The translations under genes were made by a program, and so were the position numbers. A stretch of 64,000 nt of DNA, taken from Escherichia phage vB_EcoM_G2494. The notes beneath the pieces were generated by a model. It searched no databases, was not told where the DNA came from, and worked only from the letters and a program-made list of their open reading frames with translations. This document shows, piece by piece, positions 13,929 to 41,061 of this stretch (the first letter of the stretch is position 1; every line of letters starts with the position of its first letter). The stretch lies in sequence record MK327935.1. One strand, written 5' to 3'.

Positions 13929-14447
13929 TTAGTTATTTTTTAATTGCTCATCTTGCAATAGGGCAATCACATGCTGGCGATGTTCTTCCGATTGAGGCAC
14001 ACCGAAAAAGTTTGTTTTGTAGAAATACTCTAATCGGTCTTCTCGTGTGCTCTCTTCCATCATGATCGCGGGTAGTCCGAGATTTCGGAAACGTCGCTTT
14101 TCTGCTGGCGTAAAATCACTGTAATACATCATAGAATCATCATTACCAGCAATGCTAAACTCATCCTTCATGAAGGAGAATATTGCGTTTAAACGCTGTT
14201 TACCGTCCACGATTTCGATCTCATAGCGAGAGCCATCATCAATCTTAGCCATTGCGATAGCACCAACCGGAAAATCATTAATCAGGTTTTCGATAAACAT
14301 ACGTTTGTTTTCGGTGTCCCATACTAAAGGACGCTGATAATCTGGGTTCATGTTGATATAGCCATCTTCTAACCATGCATCATAAACAGAGATGACAAAG
14401 TTTTTAGTATTGGTATAGTAACGGCGTTTAGGCGTTAAACGGTTCAT
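13929..14447 (-). CDS. DUF262 / ParB-like (GmrS-like N-terminal domain) protein
   Basis: NPDYQRPLVW and VDGKQRL motifs; ATG at 14447 with AGGAG RBS (ORF track start 14483 over-extends). Confidence 0.65.
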   Translation of the reverse strand: MNRLTPKRRYYTNTKNFVISVYDAWLEDGYINMNPDYQRPLVWDTENKRMFIENLINDFPVGAIAMAKIDDGSRYEIEIVDGKQRLNAIFSFMKDEFSIAGNDDSMMYYSDFTPAEKRRFRNLGLPAIMMEESTREDRLEYFYKTNFFGVPQSEEHRQHVIALLQDEQLKNN

Positions 14448-14448
14448 G

Positions 14449-14778
14449 TTATAGTCTCCTGAATGGATCATCACGTAAATCAATATCTTTTAAGAACTCA
14501 TCCCATGAATGGCGGATATTGTTCTTAATTCTCCAGATAAGAGCAGGGATTGAACGCTCTCCCATCTGGAAGTATGGATCATATGATCCGTATGCCCAAT
14601 ATGCTACTACAATTCCACAATCAGCGCAATAGTATTCTATTTCACTTGCTGGCGACAAAAGTCCATCAATATGATCGGTGATCTTGCTTTCGATGTTATG
14701 GCTATGACAATCAGGGCAACGGATGCAATGACCTTGTTTATCGTAATTTGATGTTAGTGAATACTTAAACAATCTCAT
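14449..14778 (-). CDS. Zn-ribbon protein
   Basis: CIRCPDCHSH...YYCADCG (two CxxC pairs). Confidence 0.55.
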   Translation of the reverse strand: MRLFKYSLTSNYDKQGHCIRCPDCHSHNIESKITDHIDGLLSPASEIEYYCADCGIVVAYWAYGSYDPYFQMGERSIPALIWRIKNNIRHSWDEFLKDIDLRDDPFRRL

Positions 14779-21903: not shown

Positions 21904-21996
21904 CAACTTTTTTGAATTATTTTTTCATGAGCTTAATGGCTTCTTCCATAGCCAGCACATTTCGATAGTTAGGGTATCGTGTTAGATCGTCATACA

Positions 21997-22028
21997 TTCG
22001 CTTAAGGGTGGATTCGCTTAAGGGTGGA
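21997..22028. repeat. perfect 16-bp tandem duplication (TTCGCTTAAGGGTGGA x2)
   Basis: two adjacent identical 16-mers at 21997-22012 and 22013-22028; creates the stop of the 22002-22262 ORF. Confidence 0.9.
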
Positions 22029-22262
22029 AACTTCCTCAAACTCTGGGTTTTCTAGATACAGTTGAACAAATTGTTTCTCTACCATCTCGGCTTTTAGCTT
22101 GTCTGCTTGTTCCTGTTCATATGATTTAGTTGGACCCAACACCAACAAAATGATAAAGGTGATCAACGATAGGAGAACATAACCGATAACGCTACGGTTT
22201 AAACGGCTTGCGTACATGCCTACCAGGAAAACAAAAAGGATATAGATAAACAGAAAGAACAT
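22002..22262 (-). CDS. small membrane protein (86 aa), apparently C-terminally truncated
   Basis: two hydrophobic helices; stop generated by 16-bp duplication, old frame stays open 26 further codons. Confidence 0.5.
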   Translation of the reverse strand: MFFLFIYILFVFLVGMYASRLNRSVIGYVLLSLITFIILLVLGPTKSYEQEQADKLKAEMVEKQFVQLYLENPEFEEVSTLKRIHP

Positions 22263-22269
22263 ATAATGG

Positions 22270-22743
22270 TTACTCCTTATTTTCGCGCTCGTACTTTTCG
22301 AAATAAAATTCTACTGGCTGGTCGTGGATTGACAGTAAGCCAAAGCGTTTAGCCGCTCGCAATCCCATATTGCGCTGAATGTACTTCTGGAAGTTCTCGC
22401 GTATACACTTACGCCAGTATTCTAAGCCCATACAGCTTTTGTAAAGATTGCATTGCACACAAGCCGGATTCATATTATCAAGTATATCGTGCTCCGGTTT
22501 ATGCATTCCTACAACCTTATACTTCCACGATCCATCATCATTACGGGCAATTCGTCCATTTTCATCATAGACTACCTTTGAGCGTCGCAATACTGGTTTG
22601 ATGTGGTCTGCGTGCCATCGGTCCCCTAGTTCCTCGCCACAATAGGCACAACGCCCACCGTATTTCATTTTCAGGATCTGGCGTTGCTCTTTCTTTGACA
22701 ATTTTTTAGGTTTAGGGGCTTTCGCCCCTTCATTATCACACAT
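22270..22743 (-). CDS. HNH endonuclease (157 aa)
   Basis: CAYCGEEL...WHADHIKP...CVQCN HNH zinc-finger motif. Confidence 0.65.
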   Translation of the reverse strand: MCDNEGAKAPKPKKLSKKEQRQILKMKYGGRCAYCGEELGDRWHADHIKPVLRRSKVVYDENGRIARNDDGSWKYKVVGMHKPEHDILDNMNPACVQCNLYKSCMGLEYWRKCIRENFQKYIQRNMGLRAAKRFGLLSIHDQPVEFYFEKYERENKE

Positions 22744-24238
22744 CGAATACCTCTTTTACTGTATTTGCAGTGGTCTTGTCGTAGCGAATACGTTTGATGA
22801 TCGGGAGAAATAAAGAGAACTCCGGTTCATCTTCTTTACGTGATTTGCTGCGGATATACCCGTTGCATGTCATCTCAATGACTTTTCCAATCAGGTTATG
22901 ACGGTCAGCCCATAACATTTCTCGGTCGAGTTCATTTCGACGATCGAACGGAATTACACGTTCAGTACCATCATCACCTTTTTCGGTTGTAGTGTCGGTT
23001 AATCCCGATCCGGTGTTAGTCATCATTCGTCCGCACGCACTACGGACAGTAAAACCGCCTACCTTATTGGGGTCTTTACTATGCGGATATGCATCAACAA
23101 TTTCCGCGTCGAAGTCAATCACTTCTTTAAATTTAACCTGATCTTTACTACGGCGATCTTCAAATACACCATGTAAATTTTTAAGGATAATACCTTCTAA
23201 GCCCATGTTTACATAGCGATGATATACTTCGCGAGCTTCATCGATATTGTTAACTACAGTGTTTTCGATTATCTGAACACGAGGATCGTTAAGTTCTTCA
23301 ACAATCTGTTTTAGTTCTTCGAATCGATCTTTATATTGCTTCGTTGCTTTCTCGTTTCCGTAATACACATCACGGTCGATAACATCCCAGACAGTGTAAA
23401 CAATACATTGGGCTTCTTCTTTTGGAATAGTTCCTTTAAGTGATTTGTTGAGGATACCATTTCCGGTCTGACGATCTGCAACAACGGATTCTTTCACTGC
23501 TTCCGCTACTGGCGTTAATGGCATTTCCTCTTCTTCAAATATCCATGACAGAGTACCATCATAAACGCTTTCAACGAAGTTCTGCGCTGGTGTTTGCGAA
23601 AGGGTAGGCATATATACCAATTCGCCATCTAGAACAATTCCACGGCCTCGTAGACGCTCTAAAACCGCAAACAAATCATCAAGTCCTTGATAGGTATTAC
23701 CTGAGCGGGTATAGATTGCTAATGTTTCCCCGTCAATATCAGCCATACCACGAGCGCCATCGCTTTTAAGTTGTGCATACGCCGGATACTTGATATTAGC
23801 AATAGTCTTATCAGAACATGACGATGCAAGGTGGCACGGCTGCTGGGGGATCAGTTTCTTCCATACCTTGTTTGCAGTGGTAGCGGAACAACCGCATTCC
23901 AGGTCACGATTCAGGACCATCATTGCAACTTTAGCATCATCTTCTGACAAGCAAGTCAGAGTATCGGTAACTAGCTGTAATGCTGCATTACCAGTTACTT
24001 GACGCGTGGCAAGTTTATTTTTAAAGACCTGCAATGCACCGGATAAAGACAATACAGACGAATAACGCGATGGTTTATCGTATTTCTTTACGCCAAACGT
24101 AACCTGTTTGCAATATGCCAGATAAAAGCATTCTTTCAGCGTTTCATTGCTCGCGGATTCTTTCAGAATCTTTTCTTTCAGCGATGTTTTGTCTGTTGTT
24201 GCAAGCTGATTAATGATATTAAGAATTGACATTTTCAC
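22736..24238 (-). CDS. 30: ATP-dependent DNA ligase gp30
   Basis: 500 aa; adenylation motif LKSDGAR; VMMxRDLECG and LIDGELVY segments match T4 ligase. Confidence 0.85.
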   Translation of the reverse strand: MKMSILNIINQLATTDKTSLKEKILKESASNETLKECFYLAYCKQVTFGVKKYDKPSRYSSVLSLSGALQVFKNKLATRQVTGNAALQLVTDTLTCLSEDDAKVAMMVLNRDLECGCSATTANKVWKKLIPQQPCHLASSCSDKTIANIKYPAYAQLKSDGARGMADIDGETLAIYTRSGNTYQGLDDLFAVLERLRGRGIVLDGELVYMPTLSQTPAQNFVESVYDGTLSWIFEEEEMPLTPVAEAVKESVVADRQTGNGILNKSLKGTIPKEEAQCIVYTVWDVIDRDVYYGNEKATKQYKDRFEELKQIVEELNDPRVQIIENTVVNNIDEAREVYHRYVNMGLEGIILKNLHGVFEDRRSKDQVKFKEVIDFDAEIVDAYPHSKDPNKVGGFTVRSACGRMMTNTGSGLTDTTTEKGDDGTERVIPFDRRNELDREMLWADRHNLIGKVIEMTCNGYIRSKSRKEDEPEFSLFLPIIKRIRYDKTTANTVKEVFDV

Positions 24239-24698
24239 CTCGTTTTGTTAAACGTTCACGAATATCATTGAGGATACTACAAAATTCCGATTCAGTCAAT
24301 ATAGTCTTTAACGGATCTGTTCCACCTATACTATGACGCAATTTCTTATTTCCTGTAGCGAGTAATGCTTTACAAAATTCTGGGTTATTCCGTGCCATCG
24401 TAACAAATGCCAGATGTACCAGTCTGTAATAATGCTCACTCATTCGATGAATCGGGCGACCCTGAAAATATAACATGTGATTCTCAGTCTTTTCAGTTCT
24501 TCCGGTTCTTTTTGCTTTGCCACCGTGCATCAAAAAGATTTCTCTTTGTCTCTGAGGGTTCTTAAATCTTAGCCCCTGTAAAAATCCTTCTGTGCTGTTA
24601 ATATCGCAACCAAATAGACGGAATGGTCTTTTATTGAAGTTACTCAATTCACCAGATGGATAAGGTCCACCCGCATAGATATCAATTTCAGAAGTCAT
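24219..24698 (-). CDS. NADAR / YbiA-like domain protein
   Basis: IYAGGPYPSGELSNF, STEGFLQGLRF segments resemble the E. coli YbiA NADAR fold. Confidence 0.6.
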   Translation of the reverse strand: MTSEIDIYAGGPYPSGELSNFNKRPFRLFGCDINSTEGFLQGLRFKNPQRQREIFLMHGGKAKRTGRTEKTENHMLYFQGRPIHRMSEHYYRLVHLAFVTMARNNPEFCKALLATGNKKLRHSIGGTDPLKTILTESEFCSILNDIRERLTKRGENVNS

Positions 24699-24852
24699 TG
24701 AAACTAATCTCGCTAATCAGAGAGAACGGATCATAATCGTCATTAGGAATATCGATAGTAATCGAATGAGGATTTACCCATACACCAAAGTGGTCTTCTT
24801 CGGTGAATACTTCGGTATGGATTTCGTGGATGTTTACATTCATAGTTTTCAT
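24688..24852 (-). CDS. small acidic protein (54 aa)
   Basis: ATG with AAGGA RBS; stop overlaps NADAR gene start; not in ORF track. Confidence 0.45.
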   Translation of the reverse strand: MKTMNVNIHEIHTEVFTEEDHFGVWVNPHSITIDIPNDDYDPFSLISEISFNDF

Positions 24853-24934
24853 AATAAAATTCCTTAATAATCAATAACTTACAAAATCATATAGCCAAAA
24901 TATAGGCGGGATTATTTCCCGCCGTTTAAAATCA

Positions 24935-25258
24935 TTAACCGTAAACTACCACAATATTCTGTTTGTGCGTTACAGTCCATTTCAGGTCGATCTCTTCTTC
25001 CTTCTTAACGCCGTTAATAACGTCTGGATGAGGAACTTTATTAAGTTTCCCATGAGGAAGCAATACAGTCTTGCCCAGCAATTCTTTATCAACGTTATCA
25101 CCGATATCAATAATCTTACCGACTAAAGGAATCTCTCCCATAGTTCGTTTTTGCTCGATGATAATACCAAAATCGCTCTTTACTTCGGTCCCTGCGCTTT
25201 CCGCTTTAGCTTCAATGATCACATAGTCACCAAGTGCTTTAGGAGTTTTAACGGTCAT
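24935..25258 (-). CDS. 31: co-chaperonin gp31 (GroES-like)
   Basis: 107 aa; position between ligase and cd as in T4; GroES-like glycine-rich pattern. Confidence 0.6.
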   Translation of the reverse strand: MTVKTPKALGDYVIIEAKAESAGTEVKSDFGIIIEQKRTMGEIPLVGKIIDIGDNVDKELLGKTVLLPHGKLNKVPHPDVINGVKKEEEIDLKWTVTHKQNIVVVYG

Positions 25259-25294
25259 AATTTTCTTACCTCTTCAATTCATCTCAATAGTAAA

Positions 25295-25912
25295 TTATTT
25301 ATATTTCGCGACCTTTGGATTTCGCCGCAGACCGGAATGTATTTGCGCTATACAACAATAAGAAACATTAAACATATCAGCTATAATTTGCTTCTTAACT
25401 TTTCCTTTAAGCCGCATTATTTCTTCGACTTGCGCATTTGTCAGTTTTGCCCGTGAGTGGTTTTCACCGACATTGTTATTGAGTCCAGTTCTAAATGAAT
25501 GTCTCATATTTTCTAGTAAGGTTACTATTTCTAGATTCCACACATAATTGCAGGTTTTTACACCATTGATGTGATTAACCTCAAGTCCGGTAACGTCTCC
25601 TAGAAATGCATTTGCTACAAGTCGATGTATCTTTTCGGCTTTAACTGAGATTTTACCATTGTCGTTTTGTTTTGACAATGTTGAATAATAATATCCATAT
25701 CGGTCTAAAATTGGTTTTATTATTTTACCAGCACGTTTTTGCTTTACGAGCTTAATATTACCGGGAGAAACTTCTCTATAAAATTCGATACTTCGGTCAA
25801 TAGATCTCAATCTACCATAATTAGAGATTTCATACCACGGATAACCTACAGCTTGTCTCCATTCTTCCGGCGCTGGTAATATGATATTATCATCTTTTGT
25901 TTCCATTGTCAA
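25295..25912 (-). mobile_element. HNH homing endonuclease (NUMOD4 + HNH, mob-type)
   Basis: GYPWYEISNYGRLRS (NUMOD4), HINGVKTCNYVWNLE (HNH); inserted between 31 and cd. Confidence 0.65.
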
Positions 25913-26235
25913 CTGCCACCATGAATTTCGACGATCTGCGCTGGTGTTAAACCGTCTACATTAATCAGACTATCAAGCCCAAAACTACAGAAACCTTCAA
26001 CTGCAATTTCATATACTGGCAAAGATGTTTCTGATTCTTTACGCGGTTTTTCAACATTAGGAACTAACCACTTTTCGTATGTTTCGAAAGGCATCAGTGC
26101 CGGATCTCGCGTGGCGATCATCTCACGGACAGTACCATCTTTCTTAGTAAACTGCAAAGAGTGAGTACCGACCGAAAACATTTTCTTTAGTGCTTCACGA
26201 AGTGCGATATTATCAACTTGTTCAGTCATTATCAA
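25909..26235 (-). CDS. hypothetical protein (108 aa)
   Basis: ORF in operon, overlaps cd stop. Confidence 0.5.
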   Translation of the reverse strand: MIMTEQVDNIALREALKKMFSVGTHSLQFTKKDGTVREMIATRDPALMPFETYEKWLVPNVEKPRKESETSLPVYEIAVEGFCSFGLDSLINVDGLTPAQIVEIHGGS

Positions 26236-26728
26236 TACCCTTCAAATCAGTCAATAATGCTTTTGGAATACGCGTGATCGTAATATCTGCATTATTCAGA
26301 ATATCAGCCCAATCACGCCCACCATTTCGATCATATGTGTCGCAATAGTATAAATGTTTAATTCCACTGTTTGCAATTGCTTTAGCGCAATCTGGACACG
26401 GTGAAGCAGTACACCACATACTAGCGCCTTCAATCGATACACCGCTACGGGCAGCAAACAAAATAGCATTTAATTCAGCGTGGATCTCGTTTTTCTGTGA
26501 CCATGCACTATGCTCTGGTCGTTTTTCTGGGATCATTTTTCCTTCATCATCCAGCCAACCGCTTTTATGTGCATGACAGCTACAGTTTTCTTGTCCTGCT
26601 GGAGTGCCGTTAAATCCAGTAGAAATGATTCGCCCGTCTTTTTCGATCAGTGCGCCTACCTTCCACGAAACGCATTTAGAGTTCTTTGCGATTAGATAGG
26701 CGATCTGCATGTAAGTTTGTGACAACAT
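26222..26728 (-). CDS. cd: dCMP deaminase
   Basis: HAE and PCPDC zinc-binding motifs of the CDA fold; synteny. Confidence 0.8.
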   Translation of the reverse strand: MLSQTYMQIAYLIAKNSKCVSWKVGALIEKDGRIISTGFNGTPAGQENCSCHAHKSGWLDDEGKMIPEKRPEHSAWSQKNEIHAELNAILFAARSGVSIEGASMWCTASPCPDCAKAIANSGIKHLYYCDTYDRNGGRDWADILNNADITITRIPKALLTDLKGIDND

Positions 26729-26749: not shown

Positions 26750-26953
26750 TTAACCGTATACGCGAAAGTATTCTACTGATCCGTCGCTATACTGTTTTAC
26801 ATTGAATGTATTCACACCATGATCATTGCTCATAATGACATACACACTGCGACGCTCATCACTAAACGGGTTAACTGGTGCGGGTTCAATTTCAACATTA
26901 AAACCACGTTTAGCAAGTGCTTCGCCTAATTGCTTGAGTTTATCGGTAAACAT
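26750..26953 (-). CDS. hypothetical protein (67 aa)
   Basis: ORF between cd and pseT. Confidence 0.45.
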   Translation of the reverse strand: MFTDKLKQLGEALAKRGFNVEIEPAPVNPFSDERRSVYVIMSNDHGVNTFNVKQYSDGSVEYFRVYG

Positions 26954-27852
26954 TAAAAGTCTCCGTAGTTAACCTGAAAACATTCTACACCAATTGAGCG
27001 GTACATGTCAACCACTTGATCACGGTCATCTACTGCCAACACAACATGATAACGCGGTGCAATTTCAGAGAAGAAAATCTCTTTCTTCACTTCATGATCA
27101 GGACGACGATCATTAGTTTCACGTTGAAAGTGATCGCTAGGTTCAATACCCTGTTCACGCAACCATTGCAGAGTATCTTCTTCGCAAACATCCTCACGCC
27201 CTGAGCATGTAATGATACGATAACCATTATCACGATACAGTTTAAGCATTTCGATCACTTGCGGACGCGGTTTATCTTCTTTGACCTTTGTCCAGTCAAA
27301 CGGATGACGACCGCCCTTATCCGCTAATGTTCCATCAATATCAAAGATCACTGCCTTCGGCAGCATGGTATTCGGTTTGTATACTTCTTGACCCATATAT
27401 TCCTGCATCAGATAAAATTGGTTACGCAAATGAGAAAGTGGAATTGCTTTCTCGCCTCGATAGAAATTACGTTTCTTTAGTGTCTCAAATGATTCATTGA
27501 ACACTTGTTCAGTATACACCGCGTTAAATTCTTTTGCAAGTTCTTTGTAGAATACACGATGTTTTTCTTTCAGGTTAGTATCAGAGATAATGATACTTAA
27601 TCCGCGTGATAGAGTCTCACGAGCAATCATTCTCTGAATAGACTCTACCAGCTTTTCTTTTTCCTTAGTATACTTGTATTTCAAATGTGAGTCAACACCA
27701 AACAACATAAGACGAAGATCATCACGATTCACATTACGATAATTACTAAACCGGTTACATGTTTCCATAGCCCATGTAGTTTTACCAGACCTAGAACAAC
27801 CAACGGTTAAAATCACTTCACATTTCGGCATTATTTCTCCTTCGGTTTGCAC
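26953..27852 (-). CDS. pseT: polynucleotide 5'-kinase / 3'-phosphatase
   Basis: Walker A GCSRSGKTT, RDD motif, HAD motif DIDGTLA; 299 aa (T4 PseT 301). Confidence 0.85.
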   Translation of the reverse strand: MQTEGEIMPKCEVILTVGCSRSGKTTWAMETCNRFSNYRNVNRDDLRLMLFGVDSHLKYKYTKEKEKLVESIQRMIARETLSRGLSIIISDTNLKEKHRVFYKELAKEFNAVYTEQVFNESFETLKKRNFYRGEKAIPLSHLRNQFYLMQEYMGQEVYKPNTMLPKAVIFDIDGTLADKGGRHPFDWTKVKEDKPRPQVIEMLKLYRDNGYRIITCSGREDVCEEDTLQWLREQGIEPSDHFQRETNDRRPDHEVKKEIFFSEIAPRYHVVLAVDDRDQVVDMYRSIGVECFQVNYGDF

Positions 27853-31343: not shown

Positions 31344-31820
31344 TTAATCATGACCGTGATTTGCAATATCCGCTCGCGTCTTATCTTTGTGATTTCCTAC
31401 GTCAAAGACACGATAACCATTTTCACGCAAAACTTTAATCACTTCTGGGTTATCCTCAAAGACTCCGACAACTTCATCCTTATCAAAGGATTTAATTACC
31501 TCTAATTTGATGTGATAGTCTTTACGGGAATCGGTACGGCCTCTCATAAAGATTTTATCAAAACACACCCCGTTAGAAATTAACCAATCAATTGTTTCCA
31601 TGTAAGCATGTGAACTTCGTCCGGTGAGGATGTAAATCAAATGCCCGTTGTCGGAAAGAGCATTAATAACACGAATTACATCGTAAATGGGGGAATCTCC
31701 CCCACATGCCTTGTTATATTCGATCCATGACTCGACTTTATCAAGATTTTCGGTTGGCATCTTTGCTAGTCGATGTGTTGGATCTGTAATCGTAAAATCT
31801 AAATCGACAAAATATATCAT
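31344..31820 (-). CDS. HAD-superfamily phosphatase-like protein
   Basis: N-terminal DxDxT motif FVDLDFTIT. Confidence 0.55.
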   Translation of the reverse strand: MIYFVDLDFTITDPTHRLAKMPTENLDKVESWIEYNKACGGDSPIYDVIRVINALSDNGHLIYILTGRSSHAYMETIDWLISNGVCFDKIFMRGRTDSRKDYHIKLEVIKSFDKDEVVGVFEDNPEVIKVLRENGYRVFDVGNHKDKTRADIANHGHD

Positions 31821-33007
31821 AGATATTTCCCGAATCGGTTGTAGTCATCGTCTGTTAAATCGGTATTAACCTGAGATACCAGATACATGATCTCTACTTC
31901 TTGCGCCGCGTTTTGAACTTCGTCAGAGTTTAACCACTTACGCATCCACGGTAAAGGATGACGACGAACACTAAACGGGCTTTTCAGTCCGGCAGCACGC
32001 ATACGGGAATCTGCCAGGTATTCTACATAGGTTTTCAGAATTTCCGGTGACAGGTTAGGAATTGCCCCCATTGCGAATAGGTGGTCTACCCATTCTTTTT
32101 CTTGCTCGACAACATCCAGAAAGATTTTCGTTGCTTCGCCTTCAAGTTCTTCCGCAATCTGTTTCCACTCATCACCATCAACCCCAGTTTGCCATTGACG
32201 AATAATGTATTGTGTGCCTTTTAAGTGAAGTTGTTCATCACGCGCAATAAATTTCATGATCTTCGCGTTACCTTCCAGTAAACCACGTTCGGCAAAGCTG
32301 AAAGTACATGCAAAGGACACATAAAAACGGATTGCTTCCAGTGCATTTACGCAGTGTGCACACAGATAAATCGAAGCCATCAGATCTCGTTTTGTGTCTT
32401 CAAAAAATCTTCTTGCATCATCTAATTCTGTCTGATCGTCTCGTTCTTCCCAATAGTGGTGGAGAACTTCTTCTTCCCAATAGCGGAGATCTTCTTTTGC
32501 ATTCTCATACTTACGAATCCAATAGAGAACATCATCATAATATTTCCCGATAGATTCCGCTCGCTTCATGATAGAAGGGTTATCGATGATCTGGTCGAAC
32601 TCACTAGCAGGATCAATAAAACAGTTACGCATAATGTGTGTATAGCTTCTGCTATGAATCGTTTCGCTGAATGTCCATGTTTGCAACCATGTATCGAGAG
32701 TTGGATCAGATACAATTGGACCAAATACACGGGCTGGCGCTCTGCCTTGAATCGAATCTAGCAAAGTTTGATAACGTAAGTTCTCGGTGAAGAAACGCTT
32801 TTCAACATCGCTCATATTCAGATATTGAATGCGGTCAGTTGCAAGTGAAATCTCTTCTGGACGCCAGAAAAATGACAACTGCTTCTCGATCAACTCTTCA
32901 AATACTTGATGACGCTGAATATCATAACGGGCAATCCCTAAATCACTACCAAAAAACATCGGTTCGGTCATAATATCAACATGTTCACGATTAAATACGC
33001 TCATCAC
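31817..33007 (-). CDS. nrdB: ribonucleotide reductase small subunit
   Basis: 396 aa; diiron ligand region LEGEATKIFLD...; uninterrupted (no intron). Confidence 0.85.
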   Translation of the reverse strand: MMSVFNREHVDIMTEPMFFGSDLGIARYDIQRHQVFEELIEKQLSFFWRPEEISLATDRIQYLNMSDVEKRFFTENLRYQTLLDSIQGRAPARVFGPIVSDPTLDTWLQTWTFSETIHSRSYTHIMRNCFIDPASEFDQIIDNPSIMKRAESIGKYYDDVLYWIRKYENAKEDLRYWEEEVLHHYWEERDDQTELDDARRFFEDTKRDLMASIYLCAHCVNALEAIRFYVSFACTFSFAERGLLEGNAKIMKFIARDEQLHLKGTQYIIRQWQTGVDGDEWKQIAEELEGEATKIFLDVVEQEKEWVDHLFAMGAIPNLSPEILKTYVEYLADSRMRAAGLKSPFSVRRHPLPWMRKWLNSDEVQNAAQEVEIMYLVSQVNTDLTDDDYNRFGKYL

Positions 33008-33546
33008 TATTCTCCATCAATTTTGTTTATATTGTAGCCCATGTTGCCTTTTTCTATTTCTCTCAACGCAACTGAATTAAACGCTCTTGCCGCATCTTGT
33101 TCGCTATCAAATCTCCCTATATGAACACTCTTTCCTTGTATATTAATATGAACTAGCCATCTATTTGTGTACTTACACCAACTTACCCCGTTATATTTTG
33201 ATGATGCACCTTTAAATTTAGTTCTGTTTCTATTATTGACAGAATAATCAGTACCTCGTAAATTTTCTATATGATTGTTCAGCTTGTTTCGGTCGATGTG
33301 ATCTATAACTTTAGGCTTATGCCCGTGAAACATATGATAAATCACATGATGTATTAACTTCTTTCTATTGTCTACTGTTAGTTGAAGATATCCCCCATTA
33401 TGTGGACTTCCAACCTCATCACCAACTTTAACTTTATTGCTTGTTGAAACCTTTCTGAAAAGTTTACCATCTTCGTATTTAAATAGATAATGATACCTTT
33501 CGTAAAGTATTCGGTCCTCTTCCGTATAATGTATTACCTCATACAT
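33007..33546 (-). mobile_element. HNH-AP2 homing endonuclease (mobE position between nrdB and nrdA)
   Basis: HNH region HHVIYHMFHG...HIDRNKLNN plus AP2-like YNGVSWCKYTNRWLVHI...GRFDSEQDAARAFN. Confidence 0.7.
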
Positions 33547-34132: not shown

Positions 34133-36376
34133 TTACAGCTTGCAAGATGAGCACTCGCTAGCGTCTTCCGTACCATCTGCACCGTCGCGAACGTTCGCAT
34201 AATACAGGGTTTTCAGACCGTAATATTGAGCAAACAACATATCATCTAATACATCAGCAATATCGACTTTACCAGTCTTATAAGTGCTTGGATCGTAGGA
34301 TGTGTTGGAACTAATCGCCTGATCTACAAACTTCTGCATGATCGCTGCCAGTGTCAGATAAGGCTTGTTACCTTTCTTGATCAGTGTCCAAAGCAGGTCA
34401 ATAACATCAGCATTATTCTCTACGTTCGGAATAACCTGATTAAATTGCCCTTCTTTCGATCCTTTAACCGATACAATACCGCGAGGCGGTTCAATACCGT
34501 TTGTGCTGTTAGATACCTGAGAAGACGACTCACAAGGCATCAGAGCCGAAAGCGTACTGTTACGAATGCCATATTTTTTCAGGTCTTCGCGCAGTTCTTC
34601 CCAATCCATCTCATATACCGGATCAACCAGTTCATCTACTGTCTTTTTGTACCAGTCGATAGGCAGTTCACCGCGTCCATAACGTGTTTCGTGCATCAGT
34701 TCGCAAGCACCCTTCTCTTTAGCCAGTTGCACACTAGCCTTAATCAGAGCATATTGCAAGCGTTCAAACGTTTTATGCGTAAACTCGTTAGCGTCTTCAT
34801 ATGTGAAGAAATTATCCGCGAGATACGATGCAAAGTTAGTCACCCCAACACCCAGAGAGCGACGTTTTTTGGCTGTCAGAGCTTGCTCTACAGGATAATC
34901 CTGGTAATCTAACAGGTTGTCAAGTGCACGCACCATAACCATAGCAATGCGTTCTACTTCTTCCATATTTTCGATATCAAAGTTTCCTAAAACATATGCT
35001 GCCAAAGTACATAGGCTGATCTCTGAATCATCACGACCCATCGGTTTTGTAGGCAGAGCAATTTCACAACACAGGTTGGATTGTTTAATCGGTGCTACAT
35101 TACGAATAAACGCCCCGTGATTGTTCATGTTGTCTGTGAACGTTGGGTAGATTCGACCAGTGTTAAAACGTTCAATTGCCACCGCTAAAAACAGGTCTTC
35201 GGCTTTAACACGAGTTTTACGAACACTCGGATCTTTTTCCAGTTTTTCGTAAAGCTGGCGGAAACCTTCCTCATCTCGGAAGTATAGATCCCACAACAAG
35301 CCACCTGCAACATCTGGACTAAACAGAGTAATGTAATCCCGTTTAAGGAATCGCTCTACCATCAGGTTATTAATCTGTACGCCGTAATCAAGATGACGAA
35401 TGCGGTTATCTTCCACCCCCTTATTGTTCTTTAACACAATCAGACTTTCAAACTCTAAATGCCACATTGGGTAATAGAGAGTCGCCGCCCCGCCACGAAT
35501 ACCGCCTTGTGAGCATGACTTAACGGCAGTCTGAAAATGTTTCCAGAATGGGATAACGCCAGTATGACGAACTTCACCATGCCCGATCTTAGATCCTTCC
35601 GCGCGAATCATGCCAGCGTTGATACCGATACCAGCACGCTTGCTAATATACTTGATGATTGCATTTGCTGTTTCGTTGATGCCCTGCAATGAGTCATCAC
35701 TTTCAATCACCACACACGAACTAAATTGGCGTGTTGGGGTACGCACACCTGCCATAATCGGAGTAGGCAGAGAGATTTGCTTATTCGCAACAGCATTATA
35801 AAAATCAATCACATGTTCAAGTCGATTTTCGGTCTCTTCTTGATGCAAGCACATACCGATCAGCATATACGCAAATTGCGGTGTTTCGATGATTTTCTTA
35901 GTGCTGCGATCCTGAACAAGATATTTCTCTTTTAACTGCATCGCACCAGCATAGGTCATTTTAAAATCAAGTTTATGGTCGATGAATTTCTCCAGATATT
36001 CCACTTCTTCACGGGAATACTTTTGCAGAATTTCGCGATCATATTTTCCGATTGCAATATTACGCTCAATATGGCTATAAAAATCAATAGGTTGGAATTG
36101 ACCGTATACTGATTTACGAAGCGCGAACATTGCAAGGTTACTTGCTACATATTGATAATCGGGTGTTTCTACCGTGATGTTATCTGCGGCGACCTTAATC
36201 AATACTTTCTGGATATCATTGGTAGACATACCTTCTGTCAGAAGTGGTTCAACCATATCAAACAATTCATATGGATCAACGTTATGACCTTCGGCTGCCG
36301 CTTCCAGAATTTTCATTACTTTTTCTTTTTCAAACGGAACAGTCAGACCGGAAGACTTAACAACATTTTTAATCAT
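34133..36376 (-). CDS. nrdA: ribonucleotide reductase large subunit
   Basis: 747 aa; class Ia catalytic Cys region and C-terminal CxxC; ATP-cone N-terminus. Confidence 0.9.
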   Translation of the reverse strand: MIKNVVKSSGLTVPFEKEKVMKILEAAAEGHNVDPYELFDMVEPLLTEGMSTNDIQKVLIKVAADNITVETPDYQYVASNLAMFALRKSVYGQFQPIDFYSHIERNIAIGKYDREILQKYSREEVEYLEKFIDHKLDFKMTYAGAMQLKEKYLVQDRSTKKIIETPQFAYMLIGMCLHQEETENRLEHVIDFYNAVANKQISLPTPIMAGVRTPTRQFSSCVVIESDDSLQGINETANAIIKYISKRAGIGINAGMIRAEGSKIGHGEVRHTGVIPFWKHFQTAVKSCSQGGIRGGAATLYYPMWHLEFESLIVLKNNKGVEDNRIRHLDYGVQINNLMVERFLKRDYITLFSPDVAGGLLWDLYFRDEEGFRQLYEKLEKDPSVRKTRVKAEDLFLAVAIERFNTGRIYPTFTDNMNNHGAFIRNVAPIKQSNLCCEIALPTKPMGRDDSEISLCTLAAYVLGNFDIENMEEVERIAMVMVRALDNLLDYQDYPVEQALTAKKRRSLGVGVTNFASYLADNFFTYEDANEFTHKTFERLQYALIKASVQLAKEKGACELMHETRYGRGELPIDWYKKTVDELVDPVYEMDWEELREDLKKYGIRNSTLSALMPCESSSQVSNSTNGIEPPRGIVSVKGSKEGQFNQVIPNVENNADVIDLLWTLIKKGNKPYLTLAAIMQKFVDQAISSNTSYDPSTYKTGKVDIADVLDDMLFAQYYGLKTLYYANVRDGADGTEDASECSSCKL

Positions 36377-40464: not shown

Positions 40465-41061
40465 TTAATTGCTTGTCAATACTTTATCAATTATATCTAA
40501 CAGTTTTGGCTTTCTATTTTCAAATTCTAACATCTCTTCGGGAGAAATGTCAACTACTTCTGTTTTGTTGAAAAAGTTTGGGTCTATAGCATCAGCAACA
40601 AAGTTTCTCGCAAGTGCTGCCGCTTTCTCATGAACATATATTCCCAAATATATCAACTTCTTTCTTTCGACCTGAATATTGGCAACATATTTACCATCTC
40701 GTTTATAAAGACTAACACCGATATATTCAGACGATCGACCTTTCTGTTTACCCATATTTCTTGAGTTTTGTTGCTCGTTCGCATCTCTCAAGTTTTCAAT
40801 CCGATTATCTGTTATAATTCGGTTAACATGGTCAACGTATTTTGGCATGTATCCATGATGCATAAAGAAAATTATTCTATGCTCTTTATGATGTTTACCA
40901 TCGATACACACCAATCTGTATCCATGACTAGGATTAACTCCACCCGCTCTAGATCCGACTTTATGCTTTCTGTTTGTCGATATCTTGCGAATCAGCTTAC
41001 CGTTATCATATTTAAAGAGTTCATGACAACGAGCATACAATTCAGGATCATATGTTTTCAC
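40465..41061 (-). mobile_element. HNH-AP2 homing endonuclease between genes 32 and 59
   Basis: HNH region HRIIFFMHHG...HVNRIITDN plus AP2-like EYIGVSLYKRDGKYVANI...GIYVHEKAAALARN. Confidence 0.7.

Follow-up and report, generated by a model that had tools for sequence, protein, structure and literature searches.

Two genes encoding HNH endonucleases enclose the DNA ligase-gene 31 block of Escherichia phage vB_EcoM_G2494 (MK327935.1). The question raised by this locus is whether both are mobile elements and mark the borders of accessory insertions, as a sequence-only reading had proposed. The stretch of 64,000 nucleotides analysed here, referred to as the window, belongs to an RB49-like coliphage (Krischvirus) with approximately 97-98% identity to published genomes. 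Both HNH open reading frames (ORFs), at 22270-22743 and 25295-25912, are present and their motifs were confirmed by profile search with scores above the Pfam thresholds. The count of four HNH genes in the 64-kb window was likewise right, the remaining two being HNH-AP2 genes confirmed by Pfam. Their density, which had been called unusually high, is a relative matter: four per 64 kb is well above the two HNH genes reported for RB49 (PMC1524935) and below the 15 homing endonucleases of T4 (PMC2988022), the genome of which measures about 169 kb (PMC2993671). Both HNH genes of the ligase-gene 31 block are already known and close homologues are annotated as HNH endonucleases in related phages; the novelty of the genes as such is low.

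In this study, we propose with a probability of roughly three in four that both genes encode genuine HNH (His-Me finger) nucleases but are unlike in status. One probably is a mobile homing endonuclease similar to I-HmuI, the other a fixed, ligase-coupled and apparently domesticated nuclease. The interpretation given by the sequence-only reading is thereby supported in part.

The HNH gene behind DNA ligase

The gene at 22270-22743 (minus strand; Pfam HNH) encodes a protein of 157 amino acids and is the orthologue of RB49ORF212c. It had been described as lying directly downstream of gene 30, encoding ATP-dependent DNA ligase (22736-24238, minus strand; PF01068, 2.9e-22; phrog_114, 4e-140), and the adjacency is even closer than that, with an 8-nt overlap that includes the stop codon at the ligase 3' end. 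This overlap with the ligase stop codon suggests translational coupling. The AGAGG Shine-Dalgarno sequence of the HNH gene is located within the 3' end of the ligase gene.

The 157-aa protein matches PF01844 (HNH) with 27 bits (gathering score 21.4; E = 5e-6) and phrog_2118 at 3e-54. Among 25 homologues C32, C35, H44, D46, H47, N90, C95, C98, N99 and K102 are invariant; the motif layout CxxC...H44-x-D46-H47...N90...CxxC-N99...K102 comprises catalytic and zinc residues. A confident AlphaFold (AF2) model (pLDDT 89.9), inspected for the beta-beta-alpha-metal fold of HNH nucleases, places strands at residues 44-47 and 53-57, and residues 96-102 form a helix. Top Foldseek matches of the model were HNH domains (Cas9, Gme HNH, Cap5), all of them non-significant (best E 0.06, TM-score about 0.36), the best fold matches being the Gme HNH nicking endonuclease 4H9D and the HNH domains of Cas9. 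Small stand-alone HNH nucleases of phrog_2118 from siphoviruses and prophages (e.g. Bas78_0001) show 35-50% identity to the 157-aa protein and resemble it over the full length, sharing the CxxC, HxDH, N and CxxCN motifs and the C-terminal WR...RFGL...FYFE helices. Unlike these relatives, the Krischvirus protein has an additional N-terminal basic tail and a beta-hairpin insertion of about 25 residues. Moreover, its gene appears coupled to DNA ligase, whereas those of the relatives are found beside replication, methylase, DUF5131 or terminase genes.

Conservation of the ligase-side HNH gene

Carriage of the HNH genes was counted in 59 Krischvirus database records, a set which takes in one partial record of 1,491 bp. 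The 157-aa HNH gene is present in 58 of them, always beside ligase and with 96.5-98.3% nucleotide identity; the record without it probably is the partial one. Amino-acid identity is 96.8-100% among the matches listed, and in all 18 Krischvirus genomes examined the ORF and its catalytic and zinc residues are intact. The pN/pS ratio (0.054, versus 0.036 for ligase) is comparable to those of ligase and pseT; as to function such purifying selection says nothing, and a fixed homing endonuclease kept by lineage competition would look alike. In a metagenome contig the ligase-HNH pair recurs with amino-acid identities of 71% and 70%, stop and start codon overlapping as TAATG. Presence/absence polymorphism, as expected of a free-standing homing endonuclease, was thus not seen for this gene in the 59 records, and the 70% relative carries it as well. 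Across the genus the 157-aa HNH gene is fixed and under selection rather than polymorphic for insertion. In RB49 the protein is 100% identical and its gene RB49ORF212c likewise follows gene 30. Nolan et al. (2006) list RB49ORF212c and phi1 ORF212 among 'putative mobile DNA elements', as a Pfam match only (PMC1524935). In contrast to this published assignment, the data presented here describe a fixed, non-polymorphic gene under purifying selection.

The listing by Nolan et al. (PMC1524935) would agree with a gene that is still a selfish homing endonuclease, has reached fixation and excludes the markers of co-infecting phages, for example by cutting their ligase region. We regard this as a possibility deserving attention, albeit an improbable one. 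Within the phage collection no other member of the Straboviridae has the gene, and the next matches, at 45% identity or less, are found in unrelated small phages, which implies horizontal acquisition; furthermore, it adjoins a conserved essential-type gene as do the T4 seg and mob genes (PMC2988022). However, polymorphism is absent across 58 genomes, none of 18 genomes shows decay, the pN/pS ratio is like that of ligase and pseT, and gene and ligase have diverged in step, down to about 70% identity, and still overlap. Established theory (the Goddard-Burt cycle) predicts the degeneration of a homing endonuclease that has become fixed and brings its host no benefit.

Barely credible, in our estimate, is a role as substitute for Endonuclease VII (gp49) or as a terminase-associated HNH protein of the HK97 gp74 type. 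Weak PHROG matches labelled 'endonuclease VII' (phrog_1035, 1e-9) and a length equal to that of T4 gp49 speak for the former, but a separate gp49 orthologue with 44% identity over the full length is present in Krischvirus (ECD7, Delraymugoa), by which this role is largely refuted, and a Pfam search of the 157-aa protein gave no match to PF02945 (Endonuclease VII). As regards the latter, the homologue of phage Bas78 is located upstream of terminase. Yet Bas78 is the only terminase-adjacent case among the relatives, other distant homologues being found in replication or DNA-modification modules, and the 157-aa gene itself adjoins DNA ligase in a T4-type phage, without adjacency to terminase or portal. 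The T4-type terminase gp17, as is generally known, already brings a nuclease of its own.

We favour a domesticated gene. It has been inherited together with ligase across a long divergence under strong purifying selection; most likely it works for the phage as a small nuclease, probably a nicking enzyme, and is no longer mobile.

The NUMOD4-HNH gene and its insertion site

The second gene (25295-25912, minus strand) is predicted to encode a free-standing homing endonuclease with NUMOD4 and HNH_3 domains (Pfam). Read from a TTG codon the protein has 205 aa; translation more likely starts at the ATG at 25906, resulting in 203 aa as in published annotations. Matches were obtained to PF07463 NUMOD4 (44.2 bits, threshold 23.4, E = 2e-11), PF13392 HNH_3 (35.4 bits, threshold 24.8, E = 8e-9), phrog_59 (1e-35) and the PADLOC entry 'HEase' (2e-10), and the C-terminus reads as an HTH-like tail. 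I-HmuI is an intron-encoded enzyme which nicks one strand. This HNH homing endonuclease of Bacillus phage SPO1 (PDB 1U3E) was the sole sequence match in the PDB (E = 0.0014). The HNH_3 cores of the two proteins align (HRLVA...VxH.xG.K..N...NL..VT) while overall identity is low, and residues aligned with the catalytic motif of I-HmuI are kept in 8 of 10 copies of the phage gene. Presumably, both proteins consist of an N-terminal beta-rich region, an HNH core and a C-terminal helical DNA-binding part. The NUMOD4-HNH gene is free-standing, in contrast to the intron-encoded I-HmuI.

The gene had been placed between gene 31 and cd. Its immediate neighbours are gene 31 (24935-25258, minus strand; phrog_931, 5e-36), encoding a GroES-like co-chaperonin and the presumed homing target, and gene 31.1 (25909-26235, minus strand; from the RB49 and Phi1 annotation and alignment), and cd (26222-26728) lies one gene beyond 31.1. 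It was the 3' end of gene 31.1 that took the insertion. Alignment of 10 carrier and 8 endonuclease-free genomes reveals a cassette of about 620 bp (25304-25923, junctions ambiguous by up to 4 nt) at a gap in the endonuclease-free genomes. The junctions are alike in all 10 carriers, and each of the 8 non-carriers has a cleanly empty site. With the cassette in place, gene 31.1 loses its last two codons and its stop codon to new ones, and its C-terminus changes from EIYK-stop to EI(Y/H)GGS-stop. Gene and site are shared with the 'HNH homing endonuclease' HNH_2 of ECD7 (ASJ80305.1; 203 aa, 97-99.5% protein identity), copies of which, annotated as HNH (homing) endonuclease, are found in KFS-EC, E26, ELT4, PHB13, pEJ01 and phiS. 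The window differs from the ECD7-type copies by H instead of Y in the new tail of 31.1 and by a unique synonymous cluster at 25945-25956.

A T4-type late-promoter motif of gene 31, TATAAATA (25296-25303, minus strand; motif match), adjoins the cassette, which lies directly on its upstream side. The motif survives the insertion, and the stop codon of the NUMOD4-HNH gene lies within TATAAATAA. Comparison with the ORF list places each of the five matches of this motif in the window 25-45 nt upstream of a gene start. For the NUMOD4-HNH gene itself no late-promoter motif was found, and its expression therefore presumably depends on read-through of the cd-31.1 transcript.

Probable mobility and a linked gene 31 tract

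The NUMOD4-HNH gene is found in 11 of the 59 records, its carriers belonging to different assigned Krischvirus species. Ten of the 11 copies are at least 99% identical, with flanks at about 97%; pS is 0.034 as compared to 0.06-0.09 in neighbouring genes, and pN/pS is 0.155. No relatives with identities between 98% and 38% were found. In G37-3, which is 97.8% identical to the window, and in FL20 the gene is frameshifted, in or beside homopolymer runs where sequencing errors could be the cause.

Tied to the endonuclease, comparison of carriers with non-carriers reveals a divergent tract of 260 bp (25043-25303, minus strand) that comprises codons 1-72 of gene 31 and the region upstream of 31. Carriers and non-carriers diverge here by 12-20% and elsewhere by 1-3%. 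These are fixed differences between the groups, and most of them affect third codon positions; 27 of the codon differences in gene 31 are synonymous and 5 non-synonymous. Gene 31 allele class and endonuclease status are perfectly linked over the 59 records, and the carrier-type core allele was found without the endonuclease gene in 0 of 48 records. The core that always tracks endonuclease status, about 25136-25202 plus 25265-25303, was narrowed by the mosaic endonuclease-free genomes UPWr_E1, JK32 and kaaroe. The tract boundary is common to all carrier genomes, which fits a single import with ordinary recombination equally well as repeated homing. We came across no account of this linked allele of gene 31 in the literature searched.

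What is observed, hence, is a polymorphic gene with near-identical copies, decayed in two genomes and perfectly linked to the tract. Polymorphism and linked tract together form the classic signature of a free-standing homing endonuclease and are compatible with homing, short of proof; cleavage, target position and homing itself are what we infer. Positions 25043-25303 are a candidate immunity or co-conversion tract. In a mixed infection the enzyme would nick or cut the endonuclease-free allele, either within the 5' third of gene 31 or at the 31/31.1 junction. The carrier genome would then serve as template for recombinational repair, by which the cassette is copied along with the 260 bp next to it. 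Carriers may be protected because this stretch is a heavily, mostly synonymously recoded gene 31. Another origin of the tract would be a divergent donor from which the cassette derived, without target immunity, and flanking immunity would be unnecessary if the enzyme recognises the uninterrupted insertion site.

The seg and mob enzymes of T4 cleave within an essential gene nearby, at a distance of no more than a few hundred bp; flanking markers are co-converted when their genes are inherited, and differences in the target sequence protect the carrier. To our knowledge, gene 31 has not been described before as a homing target. Like the NUMOD4-HNH gene, seg and mob genes are inserted between conserved genes (SegG by gene 32, SegF by gene 56, MobE between nrdA and nrdB; PMC2988022). 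The likeness drawn here is one of arrangement, and the target of NUMOD4-HNH would be gene 31.

Cassette and gene 31 allele might instead have been spread by ordinary homologous recombination or cassette shuffling, with selection on a gene 31 dimorphism (e.g. by host GroEL) and the HNH gene as a hitch-hiker. The five amino-acid differences include residues 29-30 of gene 31; to judge by a Cpn10 match that was weak and below threshold, these may be part of the GroEL-binding mobile loop. However, 27 of the 32 differing codons are synonymous, which argues that the divergence was not driven by protein adaptation. The mosaic gene 31 haplotypes of endonuclease-free genomes and the single tract boundary in all carriers would suit ordinary recombination, and RB49/phi1 indels are known from PeSL recombination (PMC2839356). 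Nevertheless, strong sigma-70 or PeSL-like promoters as present at ORF210c (12/12 and 11/12 matches) are absent at the cassette flanks, a carrier-type core never occurs without the endonuclease gene (48 records), and retention of the I-HmuI-aligned catalytic residues in 8 of 10 copies is at odds with a mere hitch-hiker. We consider such a spread unlikely.

HNH genes and accessory insertions

The other two HNH genes of the window combine HNH_3 and AP2 domains (Pfam). One (33007-33546, minus strand; 2 of 59 records) is located between ORFs of 396 aa and 747 aa, taken to be nrdB and nrdA by gene order and size, the position that mobE occupies in T4. The other (40465-41061, minus strand) abuts gene 59 and is present in 11 of 59 records, with at least 98.8% identity in 9. 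Polymorphism across genomes, suggested earlier as a check on each endonuclease, therefore applies to the NUMOD4-HNH gene and both HNH-AP2 genes, but not to the 157-aa HNH gene.

The idea that HNH genes mark boundaries of accessory insertions is not borne out: three of them are themselves the insertion and the 157-aa gene is fixed. A partial fit is offered by ORF211c, an accessory membrane-protein cassette (21917-22262, minus strand; genome comparison), whose indel of about 345 bp begins at the 157-aa HNH gene, with its boundary within the last 13 nt or so of that gene; nothing ties the indel to the HNH gene. ORF211c is missing in Phi1, ECD7, kaaroe and others. Its copy in the window is degenerate: 16 bp are duplicated in tandem at about 21996-22011, and 15 bp are deleted in frame after 22167. 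Arbiol et al. (2010) reported ORF211 as unique to RB49 relative to phi1 and described PeSL promoter-cassette recombination in hyperplastic regions including ORF211 (PMC2839356). That all four genes are equivalent mobile nucleases which border larger insertions of accessory DNA around the ligase-gp31 block is very unlikely in our view and at variance with the genome comparisons, even with four confirmed HNH genes and an indel abutting one of them. The ligase-30.3-31 block between the two HNH genes is core and collinear in all genomes compared, three HNH genes each are the whole insertion and the fourth is fixed, carriage of the NUMOD4-HNH gene and the ORF211c indel are unlinked across genomes, and ORF211 is an RB49-specific gene of regions for which PeSL recombination was described (PMC2839356).

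Conclusions

Taken jointly, the two genes invite a speculative picture, which we regard as a long shot: a 'nick-and-seal' module of ligase and HNH nuclease, plus NUMOD4-HNH-driven exchange of gp31 alleles that differ in the putative GroEL-binding loop. If true, a domesticated HNH nickase would be co-translated with ligase and act on phage or competitor DNA. Programmed nicks or breaks might feed recombination in the adjacent hyperplastic region, or the HNH protein might attack co-infecting genomes while ligase mends the phage's own DNA. Exchange of gp31 alleles, in turn, would mean that a selfish element carries a host-interaction phenotype along.

The main value of the present analysis lies in annotation. 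Three of the four HNH genes are strain-variable selfish insertions and the fourth is conserved, in phages which are widely isolated for phage therapy. The function of the conserved ligase-HNH pair merits testing, a modest question. From the linkage between cassette and gene 31 follows a concrete prediction, open to testing, as to where the NUMOD4-HNH target region lies, and the pair would be a clean natural example of a homing endonuclease importing diverged sequence into an essential phage gene.

Results

Four HNH genes in the window

The 5.5-kb region around both HNH genes matched 59 phage records, all of them Krischvirus (RB49-like T4-type coliphages), with G37-3 as the best match (97.8% identity over 100% of the query). 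All genes of this ligase/31 region are encoded on the minus strand. According to the window ORFs, profile matches and the annotations of RB49, Phi1, ECD7 and G37-3, they are transcribed in the order pseT (26953-27852), cd.2, cd (26222-26728), 31.1 (25909-26235), the NUMOD4-HNH ORF (25295-25912), gene 31 (24935-25258), ORF215c, 30.3 (24219-24698), the DNA ligase gene 30 (22736-24238), the 157-aa HNH ORF (22270-22743), ORF211c and ORF210c. Elsewhere in the window, a 184-aa ORF (13929-14483) matches PF03235 (E = 6.5e-20), the DUF262-type domain found at the N-terminus of the type IV restriction enzyme GmrSD, which is unexpected for a phage hyperplastic region.

Both HNH ORFs are real and their motifs score above the curated Pfam cut-offs, i.e. 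PF01844 HNH with 27 bits versus a cut-off of 21.4 in the 157-aa protein, and NUMOD4 with 44.2 bits and HNH_3 with 35.4 bits in the 205-aa protein; PHROGs concur. Published annotations start NUMOD4-HNH at the ATG at 25906, resulting in 203 aa. The sequence-only reading had placed this gene between gene 31 and cd; it does border gene 31, but its other neighbour is 31.1 and not cd directly.

The same reading had counted four HNH genes, and two further ones, both HNH_3+AP2 and on the minus strand, are indeed present. The gene at 33007-33546 sits between putative nrdB (31817-33007) and nrdA (34133-36376), identified by gene order and size, the intergenic position occupied by mobE in T4. It is rare in Krischvirus, being found only in G5211 and G37-3 (2/59 records). 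The gene at 40465-41061 overlaps the end of gene 59 and is found in 11/59 records in two sequence classes, nine copies with at least 98.8% identity and those of E26 and 011D4, annotated as 'Fis family regulator', with approximately 84%. A phmmer search among all window ORFs found no paralogue of either the 157-aa or the NUMOD4-HNH protein; the HNH-AP2 genes surfaced via Pfam. Intersection of the carrier lists (59 records) revealed no database genome with all three variable HNH genes, and therefore G2494 stands out within its genus by an unusually high homing endonuclease load. The published count for RB49 itself is just two HNH genes (PMC1524935). Within the genus the density asserted from sequence alone holds, but it is still lower than in T4, whose genome of about 169 kb contains 15 homing endonucleases and which was called an outlier among its relatives (PMC2988022). 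The further proposal that HNH genes mark boundaries of accessory insertions was not borne out, since the variable ones are the insertions themselves and delimit no larger accessory blocks.

NUMOD4-HNH resides on a polymorphic cassette

The NUMOD4-HNH gene is carried by 11/59 records, corresponding to nine distinct phages after merging of GenBank/RefSeq duplicate pairs, and the carriers span several Krischvirus species (RB49, ecd7, kfsec, gec3s). Identity is 99% or higher for ten copies and 96.8% for that of phiS, whereas in the DNA around the cassette these genomes reach only about 96-98%. Carriage is independent of the ORF211c indel 3 kb away. On these sequence comparisons, NUMOD4-HNH is a polymorphic, recently spread cassette. 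Searches of the phage collection and of a set of 5.8 billion proteins for intermediates pointing to its source yielded no sequences between 98% and 38% identity.

We aligned ten carrier genomes (window included) and eight non-carriers. A first MAFFT alignment put the gap wrongly, and the junctions were settled by eye together with the 18-genome alignment. The insert comprises window positions 25304-25923 (~620 bp, junction ambiguity up to 4 nt) and lies in the last codons of 31.1, where it changes the C-terminus from EIYK to EI(Y/H)GGS. The NUMOD4-HNH stop codon falls within TATAAATAA, which includes the motif TATAAATA at 25296-25303 (minus strand). This motif has five matches in the window, each preceding the start of a listed ORF by 25-45 nt, and the match at 25296-25303 is read as a putative T4-type late promoter of gene 31, which cassette insertion keeps intact. 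NUMOD4-HNH has no TATAAATA upstream as a late promoter of its own, and a hairpin sequestering its ribosome binding site is not apparent, its RNA fold being no better than that of shuffled sequences (z = 0.44).

NUMOD4-HNH is intact in eight of ten copies. The other two, those of G37-3 and FL20, shift frame at the HNH motif or shortly ahead of it; as each frameshift falls in a homopolymer or adjoins one, sequencing error is possible. With a pS of 0.034, the gene has less synonymous diversity than its neighbours (0.06-0.09), and its pN/pS (0.155) is the top value among the conserved genes compared in the block.

Two irregularities were observed in the neighbouring 31.1. In its 3' part, ~25-35 bp from the right cassette junction, the window carries four to five clustered synonymous substitutions (25945-25956; TGGTGTTAAACC versus TGGAGTCAGCCC in almost every one of the 17 other genomes), which are essentially unique to it apart from one change common to phiS and may represent a short gene-conversion patch. 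In phage ELT4 (5615-5919), a 16-bp deletion in 31.1 next to NUMOD4-HNH leads to two annotated ORFs.

The cassette is linked to a recoded tract of gene 31

In a sliding-window comparison, carriers and non-carriers differ from each other to the same degree as genomes within a group (1-4%), except at window ~24970-25413, where between-group divergence reaches 12-20% while each group is internally diverged by about 1-3%. Fixed group differences begin at 25043 and reach as far as the insertion point (25303), i.e. they cover gene 31 codons 1-72 and the upstream region. On the 31.1 side of the cassette, the 18-genome alignment revealed no fixed carrier/non-carrier difference. Within the tract, 32 codons differ between the window and RB49, 27 of them synonymously, and third positions account for 31/37 substitutions. 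The gp31 alleles of the two differ by S29D, M30F, E54N, T55V and M72L; a GIII motif follows residues 29-30 (SM to DF).

Linkage of tract and cassette is perfect in the 59 records. Identity to the tract is 98.1-100% in all 11 carrier records, 83-87% in 46 non-carrier records, and 90.7% and 88.4% in the mosaic non-carrier genomes UPWr_E1 and JK32, respectively. Since carrier-type sequence in UPWr_E1, JK32 and kaaroe is confined to distal parts of the tract, the core following endonuclease status is ~25136-25202 plus the intergenic 25265-25303.

The 157-aa HNH gene is fixed behind ligase

The 157-aa HNH gene is found in 58/59 records, each time abutting ligase and with 96.5-98.3% nucleotide identity; the record without it is probably AJ550428.1, a partial record of 1,491 bp. 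Amino-acid identity is 96.8-100% among the Krischvirus records listed. The gene is intact in all 18 genomes compared, with zero to three differing positions, C-terminal variant aside. Its pN/pS of 0.054 compares with 0.036 for ligase, 0.042 for pseT and 0.071 for 30.3. This conservation identifies it, at the sequence level, as a fixed, selected gene. Its start codon and the stop codon of ligase overlap (GATGTGTGA), and its Shine-Dalgarno sequence AGAGG lies within the ligase 3' end, which suggests translational coupling of the two genes. In a metagenome contig (L024), a 70%-identical HNH gene directly follows a 71%-identical ligase C-terminus, with a TAATG overlap; therefore the ligase-HNH pair has co-diverged. 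An IMG/VR scan yielded no further diverged pairs, only two near-identical Krischvirus contigs.

Among the Straboviridae of the phage collection, only Krischvirus carries the 157-aa HNH gene. Its next relatives are HNH proteins of 120-160 aa from siphoviruses and prophages (at most 50% identity). Invariant in 25 homologues are CxxC (32, 35), H44, D46, H47, N90, CxxC (95, 98), N99 and K102. The C-terminal helical part is conserved in the family alignment, and an insertion of ~25 residues is peculiar to the Krischvirus protein. In a PDB sequence search, the 157-aa protein had no hit with an E-value below 0.18. Foldseek with its AlphaFold model (pLDDT 89.9) against PDB gave the HNH domains of Cas9, Gme HNH and Cap5 as best matches, none significant, and NCBIfam and PADLOC revealed only weak generic HNH likenesses (PtuB, Cas9, retron HNH). 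A replacement of EndoVII was ruled out, as Krischvirus has its own gp49 orthologue; a terminase-associated HNH was likewise dismissed, terminase adjacency being found only for the Bas78 homologue. Other homologues are found near DnaD-like (replication), PAPS-reductase, DUF5131 and DNA-methylase genes. Several distant homologues with 35-49% identity (L051, L053, L023, L032, L038) have a DNA methyltransferase, DUF5131 or PAPS-reductase-like gene as their immediate neighbour. These neighbourhoods suggest that the wider family is tied to DNA-modification modules.

Adjacent to the gene, a presence/absence difference of ~345 bp corresponds to ORF211c, which encodes a small membrane protein. The boundary of the indel lies within the final ~13 nt of the HNH gene (nt 1-474 are matched by 21 records, nt 14-474 by 37), and the HNH protein therefore has two C-terminal variants, ERENKE with ORF211c and EREHQEK without. 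Otherwise nothing ties the indel to the HNH gene. ORF211 is RB49-specific relative to phi1 and, like most RB49-unique genes, is located in hyperplastic regions (Arbiol et al. 2010, PMC2839356). The same study demonstrated that the promoter/stem-loop (PeSL) cassettes on either side of the adjacent ORF210 recombine, yielding ORF210 mini-circles (PMC2839356). In the window, a perfect (12/12) and a near-perfect (11/12) sigma-70 promoter match flank ORF210c on the minus strand (21509-21480 and 21903-21875) and correspond to these cassettes. Compared to RB49, G37-3 and KFS-EC (114 aa), the window ORF211c (21917-22262) has a frame-shifting 16-bp tandem duplication at about 21996-22011 and a 15-bp in-frame deletion after 22167, hence a truncated product of 86 aa. 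In G2494 it is probably either a pseudogene or a genome-specific variant.

Discussion

Both HNH genes are at least 97% identical to deposited genes bearing an HNH or homing endonuclease annotation, and RB49ORF212c, the type of the 157-aa gene, was listed already in 2006 (PMC1524935). In the literature searched, we came across no mention that the cassette is strictly associated with a recoded gene 31 allele, and no evidence for ORF212c as fixed and selected. Both features are ordinary cases of known biology.

Conservation, gene overlap and co-divergence with ligase lead us to read the 157-aa protein as a domesticated putative nuclease co-expressed with ligase. The main rival reading is a fixed yet still selfish endonuclease.

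NUMOD4-HNH, by analogy, fits a known pattern. Free-standing T4 endonucleases of the seg/mob type, whose literature is reviewed in PMC2988022, cut a conserved neighbouring gene in an endonuclease-free genome; repair then copies the endonuclease gene together with flanking markers, and the carrier is immune via target polymorphism. Cassette plus linked tract is the pattern expected of such enzymes, and we infer homing and the position of cleavage for NUMOD4-HNH from the sequence comparison. Its only sequence relative in PDB, I-HmuI (1U3E, E = 0.0014), is a nickase; NUMOD4-HNH could act by nicking or by a double-strand break. The GIII region of gp31 may contact GroEL, as judged from the GroES/gp31 mobile loop. 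NUMOD4-HNH may carry along a co-chaperonin allele that differs functionally from the common one.
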